64,000 nucleotides of DNA from Patescibacteria group bacterium (GTDB lineage: Bacteria > Patescibacteriota > Patescibacteriia > SG8-24). Position numbers and translations under genes: made by a program. The notes beneath the pieces were generated by a model, which worked only from the letters and a program-made list of their open reading frames with translations, was not told the DNA's origin and ran no database searches. The stretch is from NCBI GenBank assembly GCA_028714475.1, contig JAQTNC010000001.1, forward strand, positions 22,678 through 86,677, in the 5' to 3' direction. Positions within the stretch are counted from its first letter, which is position 1, and the number at the start of each line of letters is the position of its first letter. Shown here one piece after another: positions 3,156 through 23,058 of this stretch.

Positions 3156-6100
3156 CTAAACGCTCGCCTGACCACGGCGCAACACAATGGCGAGCCCGAT
3201 ACCCAAGGCGACGACCACGAGGGCAATCGCGCCGATGACGTACCAGCGCATCATCTGATTCATCGGTTCCTCCACCGCGACCACGGAAACCGGCTTGAAG
3301 TAATCCTGTTCGCTCACGGCCTGGGCTTCGGCGACGAAGAACGACAGCGGCGCGCTTTTTGCCTGAATCTTGCCGGTATCGTCGGTGACGGCGACATAGG
3401 CGGTATGTTCGCCGTCGGTGAGCGAATCCGCCAGCTCATACTCCCAGTTGCCGCTTTCGTCCGCCGTCGTCGTGAGGACGAGCGGCAGGTAGGAGTAGAT
3501 GAAGATGGTCACTGTCTCGCCGGGCCGAGCCTTGCCCTGAAAGGTCGTTTGCGGCGGCGCTTCGCCCTCTGCTGGCGTGACGTTCGCGCTCTCCACGGCC
3601 ATGTCCGCCGATTCCTCGCCCGCAACCCGCGGCTGTTCCATCGGCACGCCGGAAACGATGGCCGCGTCCACTGGCGTCACCTTGATCAGTGACTCACCCA
3701 ACTTGCCCGGACCGAGCGGGTTGTAGCCGTTCTTCACCTCGTCGCTGTCGCTGTAGCCGTCGCCATCCGTGTCGGACTTGAGCGGGTCGGCCCCCCACCG
3801 CTTCTCCACGTCATCCGGCAAGCCGTCGCCATCGGAATCAATCATGAGCACGGCGGGCACGGCTTCATGGTTCGTCGTGGCGTCCGTCCTCACCAAGGCC
3901 GGCGACGCCTGAACCTTGAAGGTGGTCTCCTTGTTCGACTGTAACGGGATGTTCTCCGCGAGAATCGTCGCGGTCGTGGCGGCCGTCGGTTTCTCGGGCG
4001 GCATTTCGGTTGGCGGGGCGGCCGGTGTTTCGCCCGGTTCGGGCTCGGCCGGCTTTTCCGGACGCTGGAACTTGATGACCGTGCCGACGAGCGGCGTTAC
4101 GGCCGTCTGCAACTCATTGAGTTTGGTAGCCGACAGGAGGCCGACGGTCTGCTGGGCCACCTGATCCGGCGTCAAATCACGGCTGACCTGACCGAGATAA
4201 GCGACGCACTCCTCCTTGGTGATGATGCCGGCTTGGCGGCACTTGTCGTTGCGGCTGCGGAATGCCAGCCATTCGTCGCACCGGTTGGCGGGGATGTTGT
4301 TCTTCACGCATTCGGCGTCCAGACGGCTGACGGCATCAGTGATCTGCGCCGAGAGCGGCGCGGTCTCGAAAGGCTTCGTCCCGGTCGGCGTTTCCTGCGC
4401 GGCGGCGCGGATGGCTTCCGGGGGGAGGACAACGACGGTCGAGAGCGGCACTGGCGGCGGAACCGGTGGGATGACGGTGCCCGGCTTCTCCTGGGTCGGC
4501 GGCAACTGGTTGGCGACCAGCGTATAGACCGGCAGGCTGCTCGCGCGCCGACTGCCGGAAACAGCCATGACGACGACGCCGTAGCGACCGTCGGCACTCA
4601 CGGTCGTGTCCCACAGGCCCACCCAACGCCTGGATTCCGGCGCGAAGATGGCGGGCTTATCCTGCTGGAAAGAGCCGTCCGTCGCCTTGATGAGGAAGGT
4701 CACGGACTCCGGCCCGCCCGTGACTTCGGCCGCGAGCAGCGCCACACCCTTGATCGTGTACGGCAAGCCCACCACCTTGGCGGCGAGCGGCGGAAGTGGG
4801 GCTTCCGGCGTTCCGGTGGGCGGCGCGGTCGACGGAATTTCGGTGGTCGGCGGCGTGGAAACCAGATTGTCTATCTTGACGTCAACCGACGCACTTTCGC
4901 CGGCAAACTGCCCATTCACCATGGCCTTGGCCCGGACGCGATACGCGCCGTTAGGCATATGGGCGGTATCCACGGTCGCGCTCCACACTCCGTCTGTCCC
5001 AGGTATGGCGGGCGTCACGAAGGGCGCTGAACTCGCGGTCGCAACCGGCTCAAGGATGAATTGCACGGAACCCGGCTGGCCCTCGACTTCCGCCCGGAAA
5101 ACGACGCTGCCGGAAAGCGTCGCCCCGTTGCCCGGAGCGCCAAGGGTGACCTTGAGCGCGGTCGGCGGCGACGCAGCCTCATTGGTCACGTAAACGCCGA
5201 TGAGTTCGCTCTCGACCCAGTCCGTGCCGAAACGCGCCCTGGCTTTCACCTGATATTGGCCATTGGCCGCGGCCAGGGTGTCCCAAACGGCGTTCCAGAC
5301 CAAACCGGCGGCATCGCTCATGGCCGGCCGCGTGAGCGGTTGCGCGTTGGCGCTGCCGGTGATCGCAAAGACAACCTCGTCAGCCTTGCGGCTCACAGTT
5401 GCGGACAGGCTGGCGGACTGTCGTAGAATCGCGCCGGAAAGCGGCATCGTCACGACCGGGGCGTTCGGCGGCGGCGTCGAGGTCGTCTCGTACCGGAATG
5501 GCCGTGGGCCAGCCGCGGCCAGACGATTGTTGTTGGCGTCGTAGGCCTCAACCGTCAAATCCAGATCCGCGGCGGTCGTGATGGACGGTGTCCATGACGC
5601 TGACCAAGTGCTGTTCGTCTTGGTGCCGTTAACGGAGAAAAGCGGGGTGGCCGTGGCGGAAGCGCCACGCGGATAGACGCGGAAGAGGAGGCGCGAAAGG
5701 CCGCTGCCGGAAGCCGTCGCGGACAGGTTGACGGGACTCACGCGCAACACGACATCGTTCGCCGGGGCAAGAATCTGCACCGTGACCGTGGTGGTTTGAC
5801 CGGGCGCGAAATTGAACGTCCGCGGCCCCTCGCTGTTCAGGCGAACGGATGCCGAATCCAAGGCGTATACATAAAGGTCAAACAAGCCCGTCGTGCCGGT
5901 CGGCGGCGTCCAGTTGGCGGTCCAAGTGTTGGCCGCGGTGGCCGCGACCGTACCGGGGATTTCGGCGAAAGGTGTGCCGGTCGGCGGAACGCCCGGCGGG
6001 AATATTCGGAACTTGACCTGGCTCACGCCGGTGCCGGTGACCGTGGCGGACATCGGCATGGTGGCCGACGAGATGGTGGCGTTCACCGCTGGCGCGCCGA

Positions 6101-8399
6101 TCACGACGGTCACGGCCTGATTGCCTGGCGGGGCATAGTTAAACCCGACCCAAGCGGACTCGGCCATGACTGCATTCGCGGAGTTCTTGGCCACGACGCT
6201 GGCCTCATAAGCGCCGGCGACCGCGTCAGCGCTGTTCCATGAGGCACTCCAGCCCCCGGTCGCGGCATCGCGCGCGGTGACGATTATTTCCGTGGCGGCC
6301 GACGCTCCGGAGCGCCGAATGCGAAAAGCCGTCTGGGTCACCTCCGCGCCCGAGGAATTCGCCGAAAGCATGAGGGGCATGGCCGTCAACGTCTGGCCGG
6401 CCGTCGGCAATGTCATCGTCACGGTCGCGGTCGAAGTGGATGGCGAAAACTTGAAACTGCGCGGCTCGCTAATCGCCAGAACCGCGCTACTGGAACTCAA
6501 GGCGTAAGCGCGAACGTCGAACCAGCCGCTGATTCCGGACGCCGGGCTCCAGGAGCCGGACCAGGCATTGGCGCTGCCGCTCCCCGTCACTTCCGTGATG
6601 GGTGCGGCCGTCGTCGGCTGCCCTTGGGTCCAGACCTTGAAGACAACCTTGTTCACGCCCGTGCCGGTCGTGTTGGCCGAGAGGCTGACCGGGCTCGCGG
6701 TATAAACCGTGCTGGCAGCCGGAGCTGTCATGGCGGCGACGACCGTCGAAGACGGCGCATAGTTGAAGCCGACCCGCGATGATTCGCTCACGATGGCGCC
6801 GCCCGCGGACGTCTTGGTCACGGCCTGCGCCTCGTAACTCCCGGCCGCCGCGGTCGAGCTGTTCCACGAGGCCTGCCAGCTCTTCCCTTGGCTGGCGGAC
6901 ACCGTCGTGCCGTCAACCGTGACGAGCGGCGTTGAGCCACCGGGCAGGTAAATCCGGAAACTGACGGCCGCGACCGTATCCGTCGTGGAGGCGGTGAGCG
7001 CTATCGGCATGGCGGTCAGGTTCAGTCCTGAAGTGGGCGTCACGATGCTCACGGAGGCCGTGGATGACGGCGTATATTGGAAACCGCGCGGCTCGGTCTG
7101 GGCGAGGACGACGCTCGTCGAACTCATGGCAAAAGCGCGGACCTCAAAGCCGCCGTTATATCCTGCCGCCGGCGTCCAATTGGCGGTCCAGACGTTGCCG
7201 CCCATCGTCCCCGTCACTTCCGCCACCGGAGCGGCCGTCACCGGCTGACCCGGTGTCCAAACCTTGAAGACGACCTGGCTCACGCCCGTGCCGGTCGTGT
7301 TGGCCGTGAAGCCAATCGGTGCCGCGGTGAAAACCGAGGCGGCCGCCGGCGCGCCGAGGCTGATTGAGACCTGTGGCGTCGGCGAATACTGGAAGGACAC
7401 CCTCGATCCTTCCTTGATGACCGCCTGGTTCTGACCGATGACGACGGCTTGCGCTTCGTACGCCCCGCCGGCGACGCCACTGGAATTCCATGTGCCACTC
7501 CAACTCATGCCCTGGCTTCCGGATATGCTCATGCCGGGAAACGAGTAAAGCGGCGTCATCCCATTGGGTTGGAAAATGCGGAAATCAACCGCGTAGGCGC
7601 TCACGGAGGTCGTGGCGGAAAGCGCGATCGGCATGGCCGTCAGGTTCAAGCCGGCCGTGGGTGTCACCAGACTGACGGAAATGTTGTTTGGCGGGTTGTA
7701 ACTGAACGGGCGCGGGCCGTCCGCCGCGAGTTGGGTGTTAACCGCGTCGGTAACGACCGCCGTGACCTGGTAGTTGCCGGCCGGGCGGGACGTCTCGTTC
7801 CAATGGGCGGTCCAGTAATTCCCGCTAAGCGCGCCGGTGATTTCGGCAATCGGCGGCTCGGTGGAAGACGCGCCCTGCGGCTGAACGCGGAAACGCACCA
7901 GGAAGCCGGCCGGGCCGGACGCGGTGGCCGAAAAGGTTATCGGCATGGCGGTAAAGGAAGTGCCGCTCGCCGGGGACGTGAGCGACACGGTCGCGTTCGT
8001 CAACGTCTGGTTATAGACGTAGAAAGGCCGCACCTCGTCGTTGGTTGACACGCGCACCCCTTCGACATAGGCGCTCGCCTGAACGGTATAAGAGCCGTTC
8101 TGGCTGGTCGTCGAATCCCAACGGCAAGTCCAGTTCGTGCCGGTCGTGCCGGCGGTGGCTGGGCAAACGACGGCCGTGCCTCCGGTCGGGACGATGTTGA
8201 AGCGCACCTCGCTGACCGCCTGATCGGTCATCGCCTCGAACGAGAAGGTGCCGCTCACGCTGGTGCCGGCCGCCGGCGTGACGAGCGCAACCGTCGGCGT
8301 CACCGCCTGCGCCATCGGAGCCATAGGCAAACCGGCCACGGCAACCAACGTTGCCGACGCCAAGGTTTTCCTGATTTTGGCCAAAACAGTCGTGCGCAT
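3156..8399 (-). CDS. giant (1748 aa) cell-surface protein: signal peptide, about 12 alternating Ig-like repeats, Cys-rich module, thrombospondin type-3 repeats, Ig-like domain, C-terminal TM anchor
   Basis: ATG at 8399 gives MRTTVLAKIRKTLASATLVAVAGLPMAPMAQA (signal peptide). Two alternating ~100-aa repeat types follow (LTAMPIALSATT...W.SSW.S...GSYEAQAV and VFKVWT.GQP.TAAP..EVTG...W.A.W.P..G..G.F.VRA.A). Then DSDGDGLPDDVEKRWGADPLKSDTDGDGYSDSDE (TSP3 repeats), and the C-terminus WYVIGAIALVVVALGIGLAIVLRRG. The upstream 88 codons of the track ORF are R-rich and unlikely to be coding. Confidence 0.75.
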   Translation of the reverse strand: MRTTVLAKIRKTLASATLVAVAGLPMAPMAQAVTPTVALVTPAAGTSVSGTFSFEAMTDQAVSEVRFNIVPTGGTAVVCPATAGTTGTNWTCRWDSTTSQNGSYTVQASAYVEGVRVSTNDEVRPFYVYNQTLTNATVSLTSPASGTSFTAMPITFSATASGPAGFLVRFRVQPQGASSTEPPIAEITGALSGNYWTAHWNETSRPAGNYQVTAVVTDAVNTQLAADGPRPFSYNPPNNISVSLVTPTAGLNLTAMPIALSATTSVSAYAVDFRIFQPNGMTPLYSFPGMSISGSQGMSWSGTWNSSGVAGGAYEAQAVVIGQNQAVIKEGSRVSFQYSPTPQVSISLGAPAAASVFTAAPIGFTANTTGTGVSQVVFKVWTPGQPVTAAPVAEVTGTMGGNVWTANWTPAAGYNGGFEVRAFAMSSTSVVLAQTEPRGFQYTPSSTASVSIVTPTSGLNLTAMPIALTASTTDTVAAVSFRIYLPGGSTPLVTVDGTTVSASQGKSWQASWNSSTAAAGSYEAQAVTKTSAGGAIVSESSRVGFNYAPSSTVVAAMTAPAASTVYTASPVSLSANTTGTGVNKVVFKVWTQGQPTTAAPITEVTGSGSANAWSGSWSPASGISGWFDVRAYALSSSSAVLAISEPRSFKFSPSTSTATVTMTLPTAGQTLTAMPLMLSANSSGAEVTQTAFRIRRSGASAATEIIVTARDAATGGWSASWNSADAVAGAYEASVVAKNSANAVMAESAWVGFNYAPPGNQAVTVVIGAPAVNATISSATMPMSATVTGTGVSQVKFRIFPPGVPPTGTPFAEIPGTVAATAANTWTANWTPPTGTTGLFDLYVYALDSASVRLNSEGPRTFNFAPGQTTTVTVQILAPANDVVLRVSPVNLSATASGSGLSRLLFRVYPRGASATATPLFSVNGTKTNSTWSASWTPSITTAADLDLTVEAYDANNNRLAAAGPRPFRYETTSTPPPNAPVVTMPLSGAILRQSASLSATVSRKADEVVFAITGSANAQPLTRPAMSDAAGLVWNAVWDTLAAANGQYQVKARARFGTDWVESELIGVYVTNEAASPPTALKVTLGAPGNGATLSGSVVFRAEVEGQPGSVQFILEPVATASSAPFVTPAIPGTDGVWSATVDTAHMPNGAYRVRAKAMVNGQFAGESASVDVKIDNLVSTPPTTEIPSTAPPTGTPEAPLPPLAAKVVGLPYTIKGVALLAAEVTGGPESVTFLIKATDGSFQQDKPAIFAPESRRWVGLWDTTVSADGRYGVVVMAVSGSRRASSLPVYTLVANQLPPTQEKPGTVIPPVPPPVPLSTVVVLPPEAIRAAAQETPTGTKPFETAPLSAQITDAVSRLDAECVKNNIPANRCDEWLAFRSRNDKCRQAGIITKEECVAYLGQVSRDLTPDQVAQQTVGLLSATKLNELQTAVTPLVGTVIKFQRPEKPAEPEPGETPAAPPTEMPPEKPTAATTATILAENIPLQSNKETTFKVQASPALVRTDATTNHEAVPAVLMIDSDGDGLPDDVEKRWGADPLKSDTDGDGYSDSDEVKNGYNPLGPGKLGESLIKVTPVDAAIVSGVPMEQPRVAGEESADMAVESANVTPAEGEAPPQTTFQGKARPGETVTIFIYSYLPLVLTTTADESGNWEYELADSLTDGEHTAYVAVTDDTGKIQAKSAPLSFFVAEAQAVSEQDYFKPVSVVAVEEPMNQMMRWYVIGAIALVVVALGIGLAIVLRRGQASV

Positions 8400-8556
8400 G
8401 CCCTTGTCCAGCCTTTTCCGAAGCGCCGATAAACGCCCTCCGGGCCGTGCCAGAAAAAATATCTTTATAGATAAATTATAGCGTTTTTTCGCTCGGCTGA
8501 CAATATATTCCAAAACGACGCCGGATTGGCGTCGCTTCTGTCCTACAAAACCGAAA

Positions 8557-9522
8557 TCACCGCCCCTCGAAGATGTCCTCCACGAAACGGATGTCCAGAC
8601 AGCGGCTGAAATAGGTAAGTAGCTGCGATCGGGCGAAGCCGATGTGCTCCTCCGGCAAATCACGCCACAGCCAGATGCGGTTGGCGCATTTCACGAGCAG
8701 GCCGACCTGCATCTCCTCAACGTCAATCGGAAAATGTTTCGCCAGTTCCTTGACGTAGGCGCGCTGCCAGTCCGGATTGCCCCACATCATGATCCAGCAT
8801 TTCATGGCCACGAACTCCCACGGATCCACGCCACCGACCCAGTCGGCGACCGCGATGCGGCCTTCCGGCAGGAGGATGAAGTTGCGCGGATAAAAATCGC
8901 CGTTCGTGAAGAGGTTGCCCTGGTAGCGTTCCGTGCCCGTGGCGGTGAAAAGCTCGTTGGCCCGCTCCACCGTTTCCGCCATGACGAGGCCTCGCGCCAC
9001 CAGCTCCTGGCTCCGCCGCCGGAATTCCTCGTGCCAGTGGTCGAAATTGAACCGGCGCACGAAAGGCGGCAGGTTTTCCACGTCCACCACGCGCAAATCG
9101 CGCAGGACATCCACGGCGTAACGCGCCACCTGCAGGCCGATGCCGCGGCCGCCGAGGACTTCCGGCTTGGACGACAGCTCCGACCATTCGAAAAGGAGCG
9201 GCATGCCCTTGATGTAGCGCGTGAGCGACCAACGCAAACCCGCGAACGTCCCGTCATTCACGTACTCCGGCAGGACCAGCCGTTCGAAATACTGCTGGTC
9301 GATCTGCGGCAAAACGTCGCGCAGGACGCGCACCTCATACTCCATGCTGGCCGCCTTCCGTTCGTCGCTGCCGTACTTGAGGATGAGGGCGGCCTCACCC
9401 TGGCCCGCCGCGACAGGACGGCAAAGCAGGACGTTCCATTTGACGGCGTCAACAATCTTCAACCCCAAGTGATCGAGGAGTTCAGGCAGGCGCGGATGAA
9501 TCGGCGGCAAGGCGGGATCCAC
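8557..9522 (-). CDS. phosphotransferase-family protein (APH/protein-kinase-like fold)
   Basis: GTG start 11 nt after the ppiase stop. Gly-rich N-lobe ...AAGQGEAALILKYG and catalytic-loop-like TNGDFYPRNFILL...VADWVGG, analogous to the HGD.H.N / D.E motifs of aminoglycoside and choline kinases. The antisense ORF 8644..9633 was rejected. Confidence 0.55.
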   Translation of the reverse strand: MDPALPPIHPRLPELLDHLGLKIVDAVKWNVLLCRPVAAGQGEAALILKYGSDERKAASMEYEVRVLRDVLPQIDQQYFERLVLPEYVNDGTFAGLRWSLTRYIKGMPLLFEWSELSSKPEVLGGRGIGLQVARYAVDVLRDLRVVDVENLPPFVRRFNFDHWHEEFRRRSQELVARGLVMAETVERANELFTATGTERYQGNLFTNGDFYPRNFILLPEGRIAVADWVGGVDPWEFVAMKCWIMMWGNPDWQRAYVKELAKHFPIDVEEMQVGLLVKCANRIWLWRDLPEEHIGFARSQLLTYFSRCLDIRFVEDIFEGR

Positions 9523-12977: not shown

Positions 12978-13114
12978 AATCCCAGATTGATTAAACGATA
13001 GGATGATTATACCTCATGCCGTAAGTAAACACATCTTTCAGCCAATCTTTCGCCGCAATCGGCTGGGCCAAAGACATCTTCGGCGGCTAACGAATCATAA
13101 TGATGATCAAAGAA

Positions 13115-13160
13115 CCCTCCGGTCCGTCCGGAGGGTTCTTGATTTTCATTTACGTCATCG
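13115..13160. terminator. terminator hairpin after the HExxH gene
   Basis: GAACCCTCCGGtccgtCCGGAGGGTTC with an 11-bp perfect stem and flanking T-runs. Confidence 0.75.
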
Positions 13161-13187
13161 GTCTGTCAGACTCGGAAAAACGAAGCA

Positions 13188-14360
13188 TCATCTTGTTTGC
13201 CCTTTGTCCGGCGGTTTGACCTCATAAGATTCCAAGAATTTCAGCAATGTCTCCGGGATGCTGGTTTCAATCTCGATGTCCTGCTGACCAAGTTCTTCTG
13301 GCTCCAGCGCGTTTTCACAATCCGATCCCAAGCCGGCATCCGCCAGCTTGGCAAAATGTTTTGCCATCAGGTCGACACCCGTTTCCTCCATGATCTGCTT
13401 AATCCAGGCATAAGCGCGATTGGAGGCGTCGGCTTCAAGTATCTGGACGACCAGATAAGCGGATTGCCTGATTTCCACCCATTGCCTGTTCTGCTCCAAC
13501 TGAAGGTTGACGAGTCTCAGGCGTTCCTGTGTATACTTGAGCATCTGCTCGCGAGTGCCGTTCTCATCGCCGCCGTCCAACAGGAGTTTGGCCCTAGCCA
13601 AGAATATCGGGAGTTCTGTTTGTACGGCCTGGATCTCTCGCTCCGTCCGTTCGGCATCCTCAATGGCCCGTAATGGCTTATCGCCAAGACTCGAAACGAC
13701 CTCCGGAAATTCCCGGTAAACCGCCTCCAAAGCCGCTTTCGCGCCGCCAAAATCAGGGAAGCGCGACGCCCTCATGTCCATGGAGGCTTTATAGTATTCC
13801 CAAAGCTTTGCCTGCTTGTCATCATGCGTCTGATCGGCGTGACCAACCTCGTGCAGAACCGTCGCCAAACGGCTGGGGTTGTCAAAACCGGAAATGAGCA
13901 CCTGATTTCGCTCCCGCAGATGGACCCACGGCTGTTCCTCCTCGCCTTCAGCCGGCATCAGAATCTCCGCGCCGTGCTTGTTAACCAGGGAGAGGACATC
14001 CATCTCCGTCGGCCAGCCGTCTTTTTCCCCGCGAATGCGGACGGCCTGGACGCGCCTCATCTTCAAATTCTTGTCATGATAGGGCACCTCGACATCTTCG
14101 GTGCCGATCTCCAATTCGAGCCGGCCCAAAAGCCTGCCTTCGCTGTCCCTATATTCATATTCGTGCACCTCGGTTTTTCTTTCCTTTCTCTCCACTCGGC
14201 TCTCCGGTGCGGCATCATCAATCTTTGCCGCTTCGTGGCCGGACGGGTCCGCTTGTTGGTCACTCATATCATTGGGATTTTCTAATGAGAGCACCGCCCT
14301 CTCCGGGCACGGCGCTTGCCAGTTGGCGAATTGATCGTTCTGACGCCTGGTTTCGGGCAT
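13188..14360 (-). CDS. hypothetical protein with HExxH zinc-metallopeptidase-like motif, on a low-GC gene
   Basis: ATG at 14360 preceded by AAGGGAAATCTT (the track GTG 24 nt upstream has no RBS). ...NPSRLATVLHEVGHADQTHDD contains HEVGH. The acidic N-terminal ~140 aa is low complexity. Local GC is about 48%, versus about 63% for the flanks. Own promoter at 14419-14447 and terminator at 13115-13160. Confidence 0.5.
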   Translation of the reverse strand: MPETRRQNDQFANWQAPCPERAVLSLENPNDMSDQQADPSGHEAAKIDDAAPESRVERKERKTEVHEYEYRDSEGRLLGRLELEIGTEDVEVPYHDKNLKMRRVQAVRIRGEKDGWPTEMDVLSLVNKHGAEILMPAEGEEEQPWVHLRERNQVLISGFDNPSRLATVLHEVGHADQTHDDKQAKLWEYYKASMDMRASRFPDFGGAKAALEAVYREFPEVVSSLGDKPLRAIEDAERTEREIQAVQTELPIFLARAKLLLDGGDENGTREQMLKYTQERLRLVNLQLEQNRQWVEIRQSAYLVVQILEADASNRAYAWIKQIMEETGVDLMAKHFAKLADAGLGSDCENALEPEELGQQDIEIETSIPETLLKFLESYEVKPPDKGQTR

Positions 14361-14418
14361 AAGATTTCCCTTAAATATCCTCACGACAAGTTCAACCTTT
14401 CTTTATGTATAATATCAA

Positions 14419-14447
14419 AATATAGCATTTTTTGGCAGTTTTGGCAA
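14419..14447 (-). promoter_or_regulatory. sigma70-like promoter TTGCCA-N17-TATATT for the low-GC HExxH gene
   Basis: Minus-strand TTGCCAaaactgccaaaaaatgcTATATTttgatattatacat in an AT-rich intergenic region. Confidence 0.5.
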
Positions 14448-14610
14448 GCCCAGCTGGCCGAGATACGGGGATTCGGAGAGGCGAAGTAAATGAGTGCTCT
14501 GAATCTTCGAATCTAAAAAAAGACGTTCGGCATAGATGGGCCGAACGCCACGAAGCTCCTGACGTTAACAAGGTGCTTCATGGCGTTACGGACCAATATT
14601 TTCCTGCCGC

Positions 14611-15504
14611 TCACGCGGCAGACTGATGGTCACCCTGACCGTCTTCCCCGAAGGCGGTCACTGTTTGGACCACGCGGAATTTCGGCGGCGCCGCGCCTAG
14701 GAATGCCGTATCTCCGCGTTGCCCGGTGACGTTTCCGGACCTGTCGGACACGTCGCCGATCAGGCCTTCGTTGCGTCCCTCAACCCCGGAGGCATCGCCC
14801 CAGCACCGCGACCAGTCGCCTGAATGCTTGCCGACGATGAAGTTCTCGAGACGGCGCGTCACCAGCCAGACCATCTGGTCGGATGGCAGGTCGCTTAGGA
14901 GGCGTGGGTTCCGACGGAAGCGCTCCGCGGTTCCCGAGAGTCCGGTTACGTCGCCGACGAACGGCGTCAGGTCACCGCGCAGCTGCGATACGTCACCCAT
15001 GACATCGGAGCAGTAGCCCGTCTTGTTGGTGAGATCGCCGCAGATCGCGGAAACGGTTCCGTACAGTCCCCGGTGAATCGTCCCCCAGACGCGGGAAACG
15101 TCGCCGTAGATGTTGTCCATCGGGCCGACCAGGCCCGTGACGTTGCCGGTGGTTCCGGGATTCACCCGGCCGGTGATGCCCCTGGCATCGCCCCACAAGC
15201 CGGACAGGTCTCCGGTCAGATTCGCGCTGACATTGTAGAGCCAGCGCTTCTCGTAACAGACCGCCGTCGAAGGCACGGCCATCAGGTAGGCCGTGAGCTT
15301 CACGAAGTACAGCCAGCGCTTCTCGAGTTCCTCCGTGGACAGTTGCCGTAATTGTTCATCATCCAGTGGCTGCGGCATCACGCCAACGTCCGACTGAACG
15401 ATATCCCAATCCAAGGCTACTTCCGGATTGACGGTTCTCTTGGCAACCTGCAGTCTCTCGTTGAAAGTCTGCGCAGCGGGAAACACCGGGGTATTATTTG
15501 CCAT
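14611..15504 (-). CDS. hypothetical protein with degenerate ~9-10-aa GD.(S/T)G repeats
   Basis: ATG at 15504 with GAGGT RBS. Repeats of the form TGDLSGLWGDARGITGR...YGDVSRVWG...CGDLTNKTGY...MGDVSQLRGDLTPFVGDVTGLSG...WGDASGVEG...IGDVSDRSGNVTGQRGD. Internal duplication EKRWLYF/EKRWLYN. Confidence 0.5.
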   Translation of the reverse strand: MANNTPVFPAAQTFNERLQVAKRTVNPEVALDWDIVQSDVGVMPQPLDDEQLRQLSTEELEKRWLYFVKLTAYLMAVPSTAVCYEKRWLYNVSANLTGDLSGLWGDARGITGRVNPGTTGNVTGLVGPMDNIYGDVSRVWGTIHRGLYGTVSAICGDLTNKTGYCSDVMGDVSQLRGDLTPFVGDVTGLSGTAERFRRNPRLLSDLPSDQMVWLVTRRLENFIVGKHSGDWSRCWGDASGVEGRNEGLIGDVSDRSGNVTGQRGDTAFLGAAPPKFRVVQTVTAFGEDGQGDHQSAA

Positions 15505-15663
15505 GATTACCTCGCTTGAGTGTAAAGGCCAAGTTCAAGCCGTAGCCGCGTCTTGTGGCACGGCAGCTCGAACACGAAGAAATAGTATAGTGTATTTGCG
15601 CGATCTTGTCAAGGGGTGAGGTTGGCGAGCTGATAGGCTGTCGGCAATGGTTGAGAAGTATTG

Positions 15664-15700
15664 AGAAACGCCGCAAAACGCCCGGCGGCAAACCAGGGCG
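15664..15700. terminator. bidirectional terminator-like hairpin after the RecB-like nuclease gene
   Basis: AACGCCCggcggcaaaccaGGGCGTT with A/T runs on both sides. Confidence 0.6.
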
Positions 15701-15723
15701 TTTTATTGTTAACTGCGGACTGT

Positions 15724-17247
15724 TCACTGTTGACTCCCAACGGACGCTTCCCGCGTGAGCCAATCCTTGAGCGCCGCCGTGGCGCGGACGTCGTCCTCGT
15801 TGTAGCGGATGACGGCGTCGAGCTTTTTCTTGTCGCCTTTCGCGAGCCAGGCCTCGTAGAACTCGACCGACTGGCTGCCGGTCGCGACTTGCTTGCCGCG
15901 CTCGAAGCCGATGTACCCGCCGATGTCCTTGAGGCCGTAGAAGTAAAGCGGAAAGACGACGTCTTCCTTGATAATCTCGTTCAGGTCGATCATCGCCTCC
16001 TGAAAACGCGCGAGCGCCGGCGAGCCGCCGTAACGCGCCTCAAGCGCCGTGAGCCGTGTCATCTCATAATCGCCGTAGTGATAGACGACGTAACGATCCG
16101 GCAGGCCGCCGAGCCAGTGCAGGAAAAGCTGCCACATTTTTCCCTCGTCCTCTGGCTTGGTCGCGACGATGTGCTCGTAACGGTCGCCGTCGGTGTCACG
16201 CAGGAGGAAACCGAACAGGTAATCCGCCTGGCGCGGCGGATCGCTCTCGATGTCGAAATGGATTTCTAATGGCAACCCTTTGACTCGCTTCGCTCGCTCA
16301 GGGAATATTTCTGTTCTGTCCCGAGCTTGCCTGCCCTCCGTAGCTTTTGCGGAGGAGGGTCGAGGGACAGAAACGAGTGATGGCGGCAATTCAGTCGGCC
16401 GGCGAAAAAAATGTCGCCGCTCGATAAGCGCCCGCGCCTGGATTTTCATCCGCTCCAGGGTCTTCCTTTTGAGCTCGCCGCCAGGCTCAACGAGCGACTC
16501 GATGTCCGCCAGCGCGAAATCATGGACGGTCGTGATGCCTCGTTCGCGCAAGGCGGCCGCGGTCTTGTAACGGAGGTTGTAGAGAAGCGCGATGTCGTCC
16601 TTGGTCTCGACGGCGGCCACGCATTCATGCAGCCACGGCGAGACGCGGCAGCCGGAATTGAGGTGCGGACCGGGTCTCTCTCCGGCAAGAATGGCCCGCA
16701 GCCGCGCCAATGCGTCCTCAAACTGCGGTGCGAACTCATCGAGATCCGTGCCGAGGCGCACGCCTTGGCCATTAACGGCGAAACCGTGACGCGGCCGCCG
16801 GCCTTGGATGTGCGAAAGCAATTCGCCGTGAAGAGCGGCCTGCAAACGATGCCCATCATTCAGCCGGTCAACGAAATTCTTGACGTCTACGGCCACGTAG
16901 TGCCAGCCGCCGAACTCCGACGGCATGCCGTCGGTGCGCTCAAGCAAATCCGGTTCAGAAATCAGGTCGCCGTACTTCAGCATACCGCCGCGAATCCGCG
17001 CCTCGCCTTTCTTCATGAGCGCGAGCGTTCTTTTTGCGCGTTCGGCGACGGTCTTGCCCTTCGGCTTCGCCCACATGCCGCCGCCGAGTGCCTCATCCTC
17101 GGCGAAGATGTCGCCGCACAAAAGCATGTCCGCGAGCTTGGTGCGCCGCTTGGCCTGGCCGCCGAACCGCTCGAAATACGGCCAGTTGGGACAGGCGTGA
17201 AATTTGTACAGGAGGGTGGGAGTGATGATGACGGAAGATTTTGTCAT
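15724..17247 (-). CDS. TM0106-family RecB-like putative nuclease (PD-(D/E)xK Cas4-like N-domain plus RNase-H-like 3'-5' exonuclease C-domain)
   Basis: ATG at 17247 begins MTKSSVIITPTLLYKFHACPNWPYFERFG. The C-terminal part IHFDIESDP...YLFGFLLRD...VVYHYGDYEMTRL is DnaQ/RNaseH-like. The 39 extra N-terminal codons of the track ORF are the translation of repeat element A and are not expected to be coding. Confidence 0.7.
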   Translation of the reverse strand: MTKSSVIITPTLLYKFHACPNWPYFERFGGQAKRRTKLADMLLCGDIFAEDEALGGGMWAKPKGKTVAERAKRTLALMKKGEARIRGGMLKYGDLISEPDLLERTDGMPSEFGGWHYVAVDVKNFVDRLNDGHRLQAALHGELLSHIQGRRPRHGFAVNGQGVRLGTDLDEFAPQFEDALARLRAILAGERPGPHLNSGCRVSPWLHECVAAVETKDDIALLYNLRYKTAAALRERGITTVHDFALADIESLVEPGGELKRKTLERMKIQARALIERRHFFRRPTELPPSLVSVPRPSSAKATEGRQARDRTEIFPERAKRVKGLPLEIHFDIESDPPRQADYLFGFLLRDTDGDRYEHIVATKPEDEGKMWQLFLHWLGGLPDRYVVYHYGDYEMTRLTALEARYGGSPALARFQEAMIDLNEIIKEDVVFPLYFYGLKDIGGYIGFERGKQVATGSQSVEFYEAWLAKGDKKKLDAVIRYNEDDVRATAALKDWLTREASVGSQQ

Positions 17248-17365
17248 AAATTGTAGCGGCGCGGTGCGGCGCGAAGACTTGGAGCGCCGCACGGGCGGTA
17301 TGGGCCGCCCGGTGTTTGCCGAGCGATTTCCTATTCTACGCGAGGCAAACCTGTCGCGCACCACC
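17248..17365. repeat. three-hairpin structured repeat element, copy A (abuts the start codon of the RecB-like nuclease)
   Basis: Sequence gtagcggcgcg GTGCGGCGC gaagacttgga GCGCCGCAC GGGCGG tatg GGCCGCCC ggt GTTTGCC gagcgatttcctattctacgcgag GGCAAAC ctgtcgcgcaccacc. About 85% identical to copy B. Stems that differ between copies carry compensatory changes. Confidence 0.7.
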
Positions 17366-22593: not shown

Positions 22594-23058
22594 TTAATGA
22601 AGGGGGCATGAGCCGTTACGAATCGGCATCGCCTCCATCTGTTCGACAATTTTCTTCATGTATTTGGCGTAATTGGATAGCTCACTGTCATTCAGCACCG
22701 ACAGTATCTTTTCAGATAAGGCAAGCTGGTGCTTCTTCATGGCCACGAAGAACCGCCGTGCTTTGGGCGTAAGCGTGATGACGAGCGCGCGCCTGTCCGT
22801 CGAGTTTTGCTTGCGCTGGATGTAACCCTTCTTGAGCAGGCCGTCCAAGAGCTGGGTAGCGGCGCTGCTGGTCACGCCGAAAAAACCCGCGATGTCCTTG
22901 ACTCCCAGGCCTTCATGGTCGCCCAGCACCAGCAAAGCCAGGCCCTGCGGATGAGTTAGATCGTGTTTTGCGAGCAGGGCGGAAACGCACAAGATCGTCT
23001 TTCGACGAAGAATCTCGACATCTTCCCAGAATTCCTCGAGTTGTTGGCGACGGTTCAT
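22594..23058 (-). CDS. MarR family transcriptional regulator
   Basis: 154 aa. wHTH segment GLALLVLGDHEGLGVKDIAGFFGVTSSAATQLLDGLLKKGYIQRKQNSTDRRALVITLTPKARRF. Sits immediately upstream of the efflux operon. Confidence 0.85.
   Translation of the reverse strand: MNRRQQLEEFWEDVEILRRKTILCVSALLAKHDLTHPQGLALLVLGDHEGLGVKDIAGFFGVTSSAATQLLDGLLKKGYIQRKQNSTDRRALVITLTPKARRFFVAMKKHQLALSEKILSVLNDSELSNYAKYMKKIVEQMEAMPIRNGSCPLH

Follow-up and report, generated by a model that had tools for sequence, protein, structure and literature searches.

In a 64-kb stretch of contig JAQTNC010000001.1 from a Patescibacteria group bacterium (hereafter the window; positions refer to it unless another locus is named), the minus-strand gene at 13188..14360 encodes a 390-amino-acid (aa) protein with an HExxH motif. 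We interpret it as a stand-alone gene for a soluble zinc hydrolase of the gluzincin type, probably an endopeptidase, that belongs to a new protein family. In this interpretation, to which we assign a probability of roughly 60%, the low guanine-plus-cytosine (GC) content of the gene does not reflect recent import, and the gene does not form a module with its neighbors. The coding sequence itself is supported by the listing of open reading frames (ORFs), by a 100% match to a deposited protein (P0001), by 85 homologous clusters and by an AlphaFold model.

A protein family defined by an invariant active-site signature

An exhaustive HMMER scan of 1.84 billion representative sequences, with a cut-off of E ≤ 1e-3, identified 85 clusters related to the window protein, whose sequences are about 300–600 aa long; 32 of the clusters reach E ≤ 1e-10. 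The ten clusters that were looked up contain one or two sequences each, described as 'hypothetical' or unnamed, and a word-indexed homolog search recovered only 2–3 relatives, even when a profile was used. The window protein matches nothing at threshold in Pfam, NCBIfam, PADLOC or PHROGs, the best Pfam result being a sub-threshold match of 13 bits, and NCBIfam gave coiled-coil noise only for all 38 members of the alignment described below. Judged from these sequences, the protein belongs to a small, fast-evolving and previously undescribed family that has so far been seen almost only in the Patescibacteria (candidate phyla radiation, CPR).

In an alignment of 38 diverse members, which share 18–28% identity with the query, six residues never vary: H170, E171, H174, Q177, E309 and A312. 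Conservation is 90% or more at D311, R315 and A316, which are counted among the near-invariant positions together with E69, D72, G75, D121, G173, P219, L376 and Y379. The resulting family signature is (F/Y)EYRDxEGxLxG ... GEKDGxP ... HExGHxxQ ... ExDA[ST]xRA. The initial annotation of this DNA had noted a zincin-like HExxH motif, and the alignment bears this out: the protein carries the peptide NPSRLATVLHEVGHADQTHDD, with HEVGH at residues 170–174, and the two histidines and the glutamate of the motif are unchanged in every homolog aligned. The same annotation overlooked the invariant glutamate further downstream, which lies in the helix that carries ExDA[ST]xRA.

The two halves of the putative active site fall on separate helices. 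HEVGHADQ (residues 170–177; 13830..13853, minus strand), which contains the putative zinc-binding and catalytic HExxH motif and the invariant Gln, lies on helix 162–177, and EADASNRA (residues 309–316; 13413..13436, minus strand), which contains the proposed third zinc ligand Glu309, lies on helix 303–327. In a regular-expression scan of ∼1 Mb of fetched loci, among them 20 family loci from species-representative genomes and 3 obtained by exact look-up, the paired motifs occur only in family members and are present in every copy (23 loci). The HExxH motif is very probably a true zincin-type site, and at the level of sequence and predicted secondary structure we propose a gluzincin-type signature with Glu309 as the third ligand. 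A metzincin-type third histidine was considered and rejected; the candidate residue, H180, is not conserved in the alignment.

Predicted structure and proposed mechanism

The AlphaFold model, which was run with the 38-sequence alignment, has a pLDDT of 84.7 and a pTM of 0.78, with residues 60–385 mostly above 90. Residues 1–58 (14187..14360, minus strand) form an acidic tail that is predicted to be disordered (pLDDT < 50 at 1–28 and 32–54) and that varies in both length and sequence across the family. The acidic low-complexity N-terminal third described in the initial annotation is therefore real as an acidic tail but shorter than had been thought, spanning about 58 residues or 15% of the protein, and residues 61–155 are instead predicted with confidence to form a beta region (13896..14180, minus strand; pLDDT 93.2 in a truncated model). 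This region consists of long hairpins (63–121) that carry the EYRDxEGxLxG and GEKDGxP motifs, followed by a small sheet (132–155) that precedes the active-site helix.

The HExxH helix (162–177) is predicted at pLDDT > 95, and several short helices come after it. The two catalytic motifs are separated by a long antiparallel coiled-coil hairpin (residues 228–301; 13458..13679, minus strand), made up of helices 228–262 and 266–301, and in the long family members (520–600 aa) an extra domain is found at the tip of this hairpin (alignment columns 401–600). Glu309 is located on the next helix (303–327), after which the model ends in a small C-terminal alpha/beta unit. The helical character that had been ascribed to the C-terminal half is confirmed in the model.

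By its sequence the protein is soluble. None of the 38 members has a membrane segment, the highest Kyte–Doolittle 19-residue mean being 1.56 (cutoff 1.6) and typical values being 1.2 or less, and none has a signal peptide or an N-terminal h-region. The family proteins are acidic, with a pI of about 5 and a D/E/K/R content of 33%.

In the mechanism that we propose, His170 and His174 of the HExxH helix and Glu309 of the ExDA[ST]xRA helix would hold the zinc ion, and Glu171 would act as the general base that activates a water molecule. The small beta sheet that precedes the active-site helix would provide an edge strand for substrate binding. The coiled-coil hairpin, which holds a whole extra domain in the long paralogs, may serve as a lid, an arm or an oligomerization element.

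Relation to known metallopeptidase families

The best-supported placement of the protein is in a new family whose nearest known neighbors are two MA-clan families, YugP-like and DUF6782, to neither of which it belongs. DUF6782 (PF20573), a putative metallopeptidase family, is matched by 13 of the 38 members with E-values from 3.4e-4 to 0.1, over the strands that precede the HExxH helix and the helix itself (about positions 42–106 of the 241 in the profile). Seven of the 38 match PF04298 (Zn_peptidase_2, the YugP-like putative neutral zinc metallopeptidases), either at the HExxH region (profile 85–104) or at the Glu helix (profile 157–176), and the window protein scores 13.1 bits at the latter (residues 303–322, profile 157–176). 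Taken together, the matches to the two families recur and are in register with both motifs. All of them nevertheless stay below threshold: for PF04298, the 13.1 bits of the window protein and the 17 bits of the best listed member compare with a gathering threshold of 27, and for DUF6782, the listed members score 13–15 bits against a 27-bit cutoff and the window protein gives no match.

The sub-threshold matches to PF04298, which fall at the same two motif sites in 7 of the 38 members, point to a likeness to the YugP-type proteins, which carry HExGHAxQ and ExDAS..RA-like motifs closely similar to HEVGHADQ and EADASNRA. The YugP-type proteins are membrane proteins of about 220 aa, whereas the new family lacks a hydrophobic segment, has an N-domain of beta hairpins and inserts a coiled-coil hairpin of 75 to ∼270 residues between the two motifs. 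In the case of DUF6782, which is itself uncharacterized, the similarity to the new family does not extend to the C-terminal half of the profile. YugP itself has been called only a 'putative metalloprotease' (PMC13393411). Literature searches on DUF6782, PF04298 and Patescibacteria with zincin returned nothing relevant, and DUF6782 is not mentioned in the literature searched.

The same motif logic is found in the M48 and M56 gluzincins (HtpX, Ste24, BepA, BlaR1) and in the soluble minigluzincins, which combine an HExxH helix with a Glu ligand that a subsequent helix supplies from an E-x-x-A sequence. Foldseek returned no M48 or minigluzincin structure. However, Peptidase_M48 is not matched at E ≤ 0.1 by any of the 38 members, and M48 membership was rejected on this result and on the profile comparison with HtpX given below. 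The M3 oligopeptidases (A/F) show local similarity at HEFGHAxQ, with the best match to 4ka8 (E 0.002) and weaker ones to 4put, 2h1j and 3ahm. This similarity is confined to about 15–55 residues at the motif, and the M3 enzymes differ in size (about 600–700 aa), in overall fold and in the position of the third ligand, which follows HExxH by about 25 residues in M3 and by 135 or more in the new family. Matches to TAL effectors in a PDB sequence search with the single protein were rejected as an artifact of summed weak repeat matches. The protein fits none of M48, M41, M78/ImmA, SprT or the thermolysin-like families, in agreement with the initial annotation.

Several of these comparisons weigh against assignment of the protein as a zinc peptidase. 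No family model reaches its curated threshold, with best scores of 13–17 bits against a cutoff of 27. When compared by hhalign with E. coli HtpX, the family aligns at HExxH only (13 columns, probability 1%). The family profile finds only marginal local matches among PDB sequences, namely the oligopeptidase A match described above and one to a designed helical protein, besides coiled-coil noise. Finally, Foldseek searches with the full model and with the 58–227 fragment returned no similar solved or viral structure (E > 0.02, TM-scores < 0.25), so the zincin fold itself is not confirmed by structural comparison.

The lack of a fold match to any solved peptidase and of a family model at threshold could also be understood if the HExxH...E site binds metal in a protein that is not a peptidase, but rather another amide or ester hydrolase, or a structural or regulatory metal-binding coiled-coil protein. 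The unusual architecture, with its long beta-hairpin domain and coiled-coil hairpin, would be consistent with such a role, as would the frequent adjacency of family genes to aminoacyl-tRNA-related genes (7 of ∼25 independent loci, discussed below). We regard this explanation as unlikely, because the general base Glu171 is invariant, a pattern to be expected of catalysis and not of metal binding by itself, and because the sole recurrent remote matches of the family are to two putative metallopeptidase families and are in register with both motifs.

Gene structure and transcription signals

The minus-strand ORF extends from an ATG at 14360 to a stop codon at 13188 and specifies 390 aa. The NCBI model of this gene, PHT12_00165 (P0001, annotated as 'hypothetical protein PHT12_00165, Patescibacteria group bacterium'), is from a 154-kb contig of the same metagenome-assembled genome (MAG) and matches at 100%; it starts at M32 (14267) and is 31 codons shorter, giving a protein of 359 aa. 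An exact-match look-up of the window's own protein returned no record. We use the longer, 390-aa form because a Shine–Dalgarno-like AAGGGA (14367..14372, minus strand) stands 6 nt 5' of the ATG at 14360. Whichever start codon is taken, conservation in the 38-member alignment begins near residue 58.

The target gene is real and is probably a stand-alone transcription unit. The promoter TTGCCA-N17-TATATT reported in the initial annotation is present on the minus strand at 14419..14447, ∼50 nt upstream of the ATG, as a sigma-70-like element with 10 of 12 consensus matches and a TG extension. Promoter-like sites are more frequent in the target-gene region than in shuffled sequence (5 observed versus 1.4 expected). 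A hairpin at 13110..13140, between the stop codon and the adjacent pgi gene, is a probable transcription terminator. Its stem is perfect, as had been described, but is 13 bp long rather than 11 bp, with a 5-nt loop. Of the two strands of this hairpin, the plus strand has the better T-run, and we can therefore only infer how efficient the terminator is for the target gene. In the flanks of the gene, the sole match to a known RNA element is a sub-threshold Phe_leader at the terminator (E 0.43). The neighboring GD-repeat gene has its own promoter (15612..15584, 11 of 12 matches) and terminator (14549..14522), so separate transcription of the two genes, as the initial annotation suggested, is plausible.

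Distribution, paralogs and rate of evolution

The loci of the family are labeled mostly as Patescibacteria, Uhrbacteria, Magasanikbacteria or Parcubacteria. Nine loci are labeled 'uncultured Gammaproteobacteria', and in at least two of these the label appears to be wrong. The two MAG records concerned (L015, CAZENZ010000029.1, and L021, CAZRDS010000068.1) are titled 'uncultured Gammaproteobacteria bacterium', but they encode a tryptophanyl-tRNA synthetase (TrpRS) 80–85% identical to that of a Patescibacteria-labeled MAG (L020) and share its TrpRS–family gene synteny, and the label therefore looks incorrect.

The TrpRS–family gene pair is co-inherited in one clade, which allows the two proteins to be compared directly. 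The family proteins are 50–57% identical and the TrpRS proteins are 80–85% identical, implying that the family protein evolves roughly 2.5–3 times faster than TrpRS. Tandem paralogs are found in three loci: L007 (3-1337 and 1679-3484), L015 (4899-6428, 6533-7777, 7878-8348 and 8421-8837) and L019 (1638-3146 and 3143-4567). The L015 copy beside TrpRS is broken into two ORFs (156 and 138 aa), perhaps as a pseudogene or through an assembly error.

Genomic neighbors across the family

Elsewhere in the family, the immediate neighbors are varied housekeeping genes. They include TrpRS, PheS, LeuRS and TrxB, ThrRS, GatA, GatB, TrmD and RlmH; RuvX, RecO and RecQ; PyrF, shikimate dehydrogenase and an aromatic amino-acid hydroxylase; and a C39 peptidase, TrmB-type regulators, the Suf operon, phosphoglucomutase, transketolase and SLT/Nramp. 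An aminoacyl-tRNA synthetase (aaRS) or GatA/GatB gene adjoins the family gene in ∼7 of ∼25 independent loci (TrpRS twice, and PheS, LeuRS, ThrRS, GatA and GatB once each). The loci concerned are L003, L010, L013, L014, L019, L015/L020/L021 and L023; TrmD and RlmH adjoin the family gene in two further loci. The binomial probability of the aaRS adjacency is 0.0013 at a chance rate of 7% and 0.07 at a chance rate of 15%, for a category that was picked after seeing the data. Three loci fetched later as a prospective test gave no further case (0/3), and the window copy is not beside an aaRS. We treat this adjacency as a lead rather than a finding. A second, small block of conserved synteny involves P0004 and P0013, two family proteins from the same metagenome (L104 6524-9275 and L116 3011-6897), both of which adjoin an SLT-like gene and, beyond it, an Nramp transporter.

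The fast evolution relative to the adjacent TrpRS, the tandem paralogs with one split copy, the variability of the N-terminal tail, inserted domain and genomic position, and the confinement of the family to a symbiotic lineage would all suit an effector or toxin protease that an episymbiotic cell exports by a non-Sec route for use against its host or competitors. We find this role improbable. A signal peptide or membrane anchor is absent from all 38 members, secretion-system and immunity genes do not recur as neighbors, and the proteins bear no likeness to known effector proteases, with M91 matched by only 1 of the 38 members (E 0.076). A hydrolase tied to aminoacyl-tRNA synthesis, as the frequent proximity to aaRS and GatA/B genes might suggest, is less likely still.

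Base composition is a trait of the family

The target gene has a GC content of 55.2%, compared with 61–63% for the flanking genes and 60.9% for the window. The initial annotation had placed the gene at about 48%; values of 44–46% are found only in the intergenic DNA on either side. A GC dip does exist at this position, where the 64 kb reach their lowest GC, but it is modest (z = -2.2 relative to all 1173-bp windows) and its size had been overstated. At third codon positions (GC3), the gene has a value of 0.65, versus 0.75–0.81 in the neighboring genes.

A comparison across the fetched loci indicates that this deficit is not peculiar to the window. Family genes lie below the median GC of their neighbors in 24 of 27 cases, by 3.8 points on average (Wilcoxon p = 1.3e-6), and their GC follows that of their neighbors over a range from 33% to 68% (r = 0.93). 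The deficit of 6.5 points for the window gene falls within the family range. The differences at the second (GC2) and third codon positions are -5.2 and -5.9 points, respectively; the crude longest-ORF caller sometimes takes antisense ORFs, which affects the medians for these two positions but leaves total GC untouched. The lower GC is a family-wide trait and is no sign of recent import. Because the deficit is family-wide and tracks host GC, recent transfer cannot be inferred from composition, as the initial annotation had done. We attribute the low GC2 to the charged, E/K/D-rich composition of the protein, and the low GC3 to weak codon bias and fast evolution, which together explain the low GC without recent import. 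Searches of phage and plasmid collections found no family homologs, and the target locus has no tRNA, no integrase and no flanking direct repeats.

A lineage-variable slot between TM0106 and pgi

The neighbors of the target gene are those named in the initial annotation: pgi (PF00342, E 3.8e-42) on one side, and on the other a gene for a GD-repeat protein and one for a TM0106 RecB-like nuclease (TIGR03491, E 4.6e-82). We screened 80 pgi loci and compared the window with three metagenomic relatives (L025, L026 and L027), which are distant (pgi 57–64% identical). The relatives keep the gene order ABC-ATPase (abcATP), macB, macB, TM0106, [slot], pgi, DUF4015, cyclophilin (PPIase), unknown. In the window, the slot (12978..15723) holds the GD-repeat gene and the target gene; in the relatives it measures 1.8–2.0 kb and holds one oppositely oriented gene. 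In L025 (2921-4546, minus strand) and L026 (6240-7862, minus strand) its product is an E/K-rich coiled-coil protein of 540 aa that matches no Pfam family, and in L027 (2977-4809, minus strand) it is a PP2C phosphatase of 610 aa that has a long coiled-coil tail. The slot occupants are all charged, rich in coiled coils and devoid of signal peptides.

None of the 80 pgi loci contained a family member or a GD-repeat homolog. The slot that holds the target and the GD-repeat gene in the window varies between lineages, and the position of the target is lineage-specific. The island idea of the initial annotation stands insofar as the content of the slot differs among relatives, which are too distant to date the arrival of its present occupants. 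TM0106 is present in these relatives without the target and is therefore a conserved resident.

A defense-like module of the target, the GD-repeat gene and the nuclease had also been suggested. Among ∼27 other family loci, however, none contains a TM0106 or GD-repeat homolog, and in none of them does a nuclease adjoin the family gene. PADLOC matched neither the target nor the GD-repeat protein, and the nuclease gave only a weak match to Cas4 (E 0.029). In our reading the target is functionally tied to neither gene, and a three-gene unit is not supported.

A recently acquired low-GC island, perhaps with a defense-like function, would be consistent with the local GC minimum, with the absence of the target and GD-repeat genes from the equivalent slot in relatives and with AT-rich intergenic DNA around a gene that has its own promoter and terminator. 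We nevertheless judge it very unlikely, and its module component largely refuted: the gene has a GC content of 55% rather than 48% and shares its deficit with the family, mobile-element signatures and homologs are lacking, no donor is in sight with the closest homolog just 26–36% identical, TM0106 keeps its place beside the MacB genes in relatives without the target, homologs of the GD-repeat gene lie in another context that is itself conserved (RNase J/CTP-transferase-like/UvrB), and the time of arrival at the site cannot be dated from relatives this distant.

Other genes in the window

The GD-repeat protein (14611-15504, minus strand) is 297 aa long and contains GDxxG-type repeats, with underlying DNA repeats of 27–30 nt. 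It has no family match other than a weak one to a TigB RiPP model, and only about 7 homologs are known (30–53% identity). Homologs in other MAGs (45–53% identity) are flanked by a CTP-transferase/NAD-kinase-like gene on one side and UvrB on the other, with an RNase J-like gene upstream. The ORF of the TM0106 nuclease (15724-17364, minus strand) reaches a GTG at 17364. Because TIGR03491 aligns only from residue 50 and the homologs in relatives are about 485–490 aa long, the true start is probably an ATG near 17247, as the initial annotation assumed. The very large minus-strand ORF at 3156-8663 specifies an 1835-aa product that contains bacterial Ig-like domains (Big_7, Big_13) and TSP3 repeats and is probably a surface or adhesin-type protein. 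A second gene of lower GC (54.2%) lies at 22594-23058 on the minus strand and encodes a 154-aa MarR-family regulator.

Implications

As a general caution, a gene with a GC content below that of its neighbors need not be foreign. The deficit described here accompanies the family across genomes of 33% to 68% GC, together with rapid evolution and a high content of charged residues. The finding will be of modest practical value until a substrate or a localization is known. In the improbable event that the family is a Patescibacteria-specific, rapidly diversifying arsenal of soluble gluzincins, exported by a non-classical route and acting on host or competitor proteins in episymbiosis, it would represent a new fold arrangement in which a beta-hairpin domain and a coiled-coil hairpin stand where related enzymes have membrane helices.

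The Patescibacteria account for much of bacterial diversity, and for most of their lineage-specific proteins no function has been assigned. The present work defines one such family, with ∼85 clusters, an invariant signature and a confidently predicted fold that is unmatched among known structures. Its members are candidate soluble zinc proteases that current annotation libraries miss entirely.

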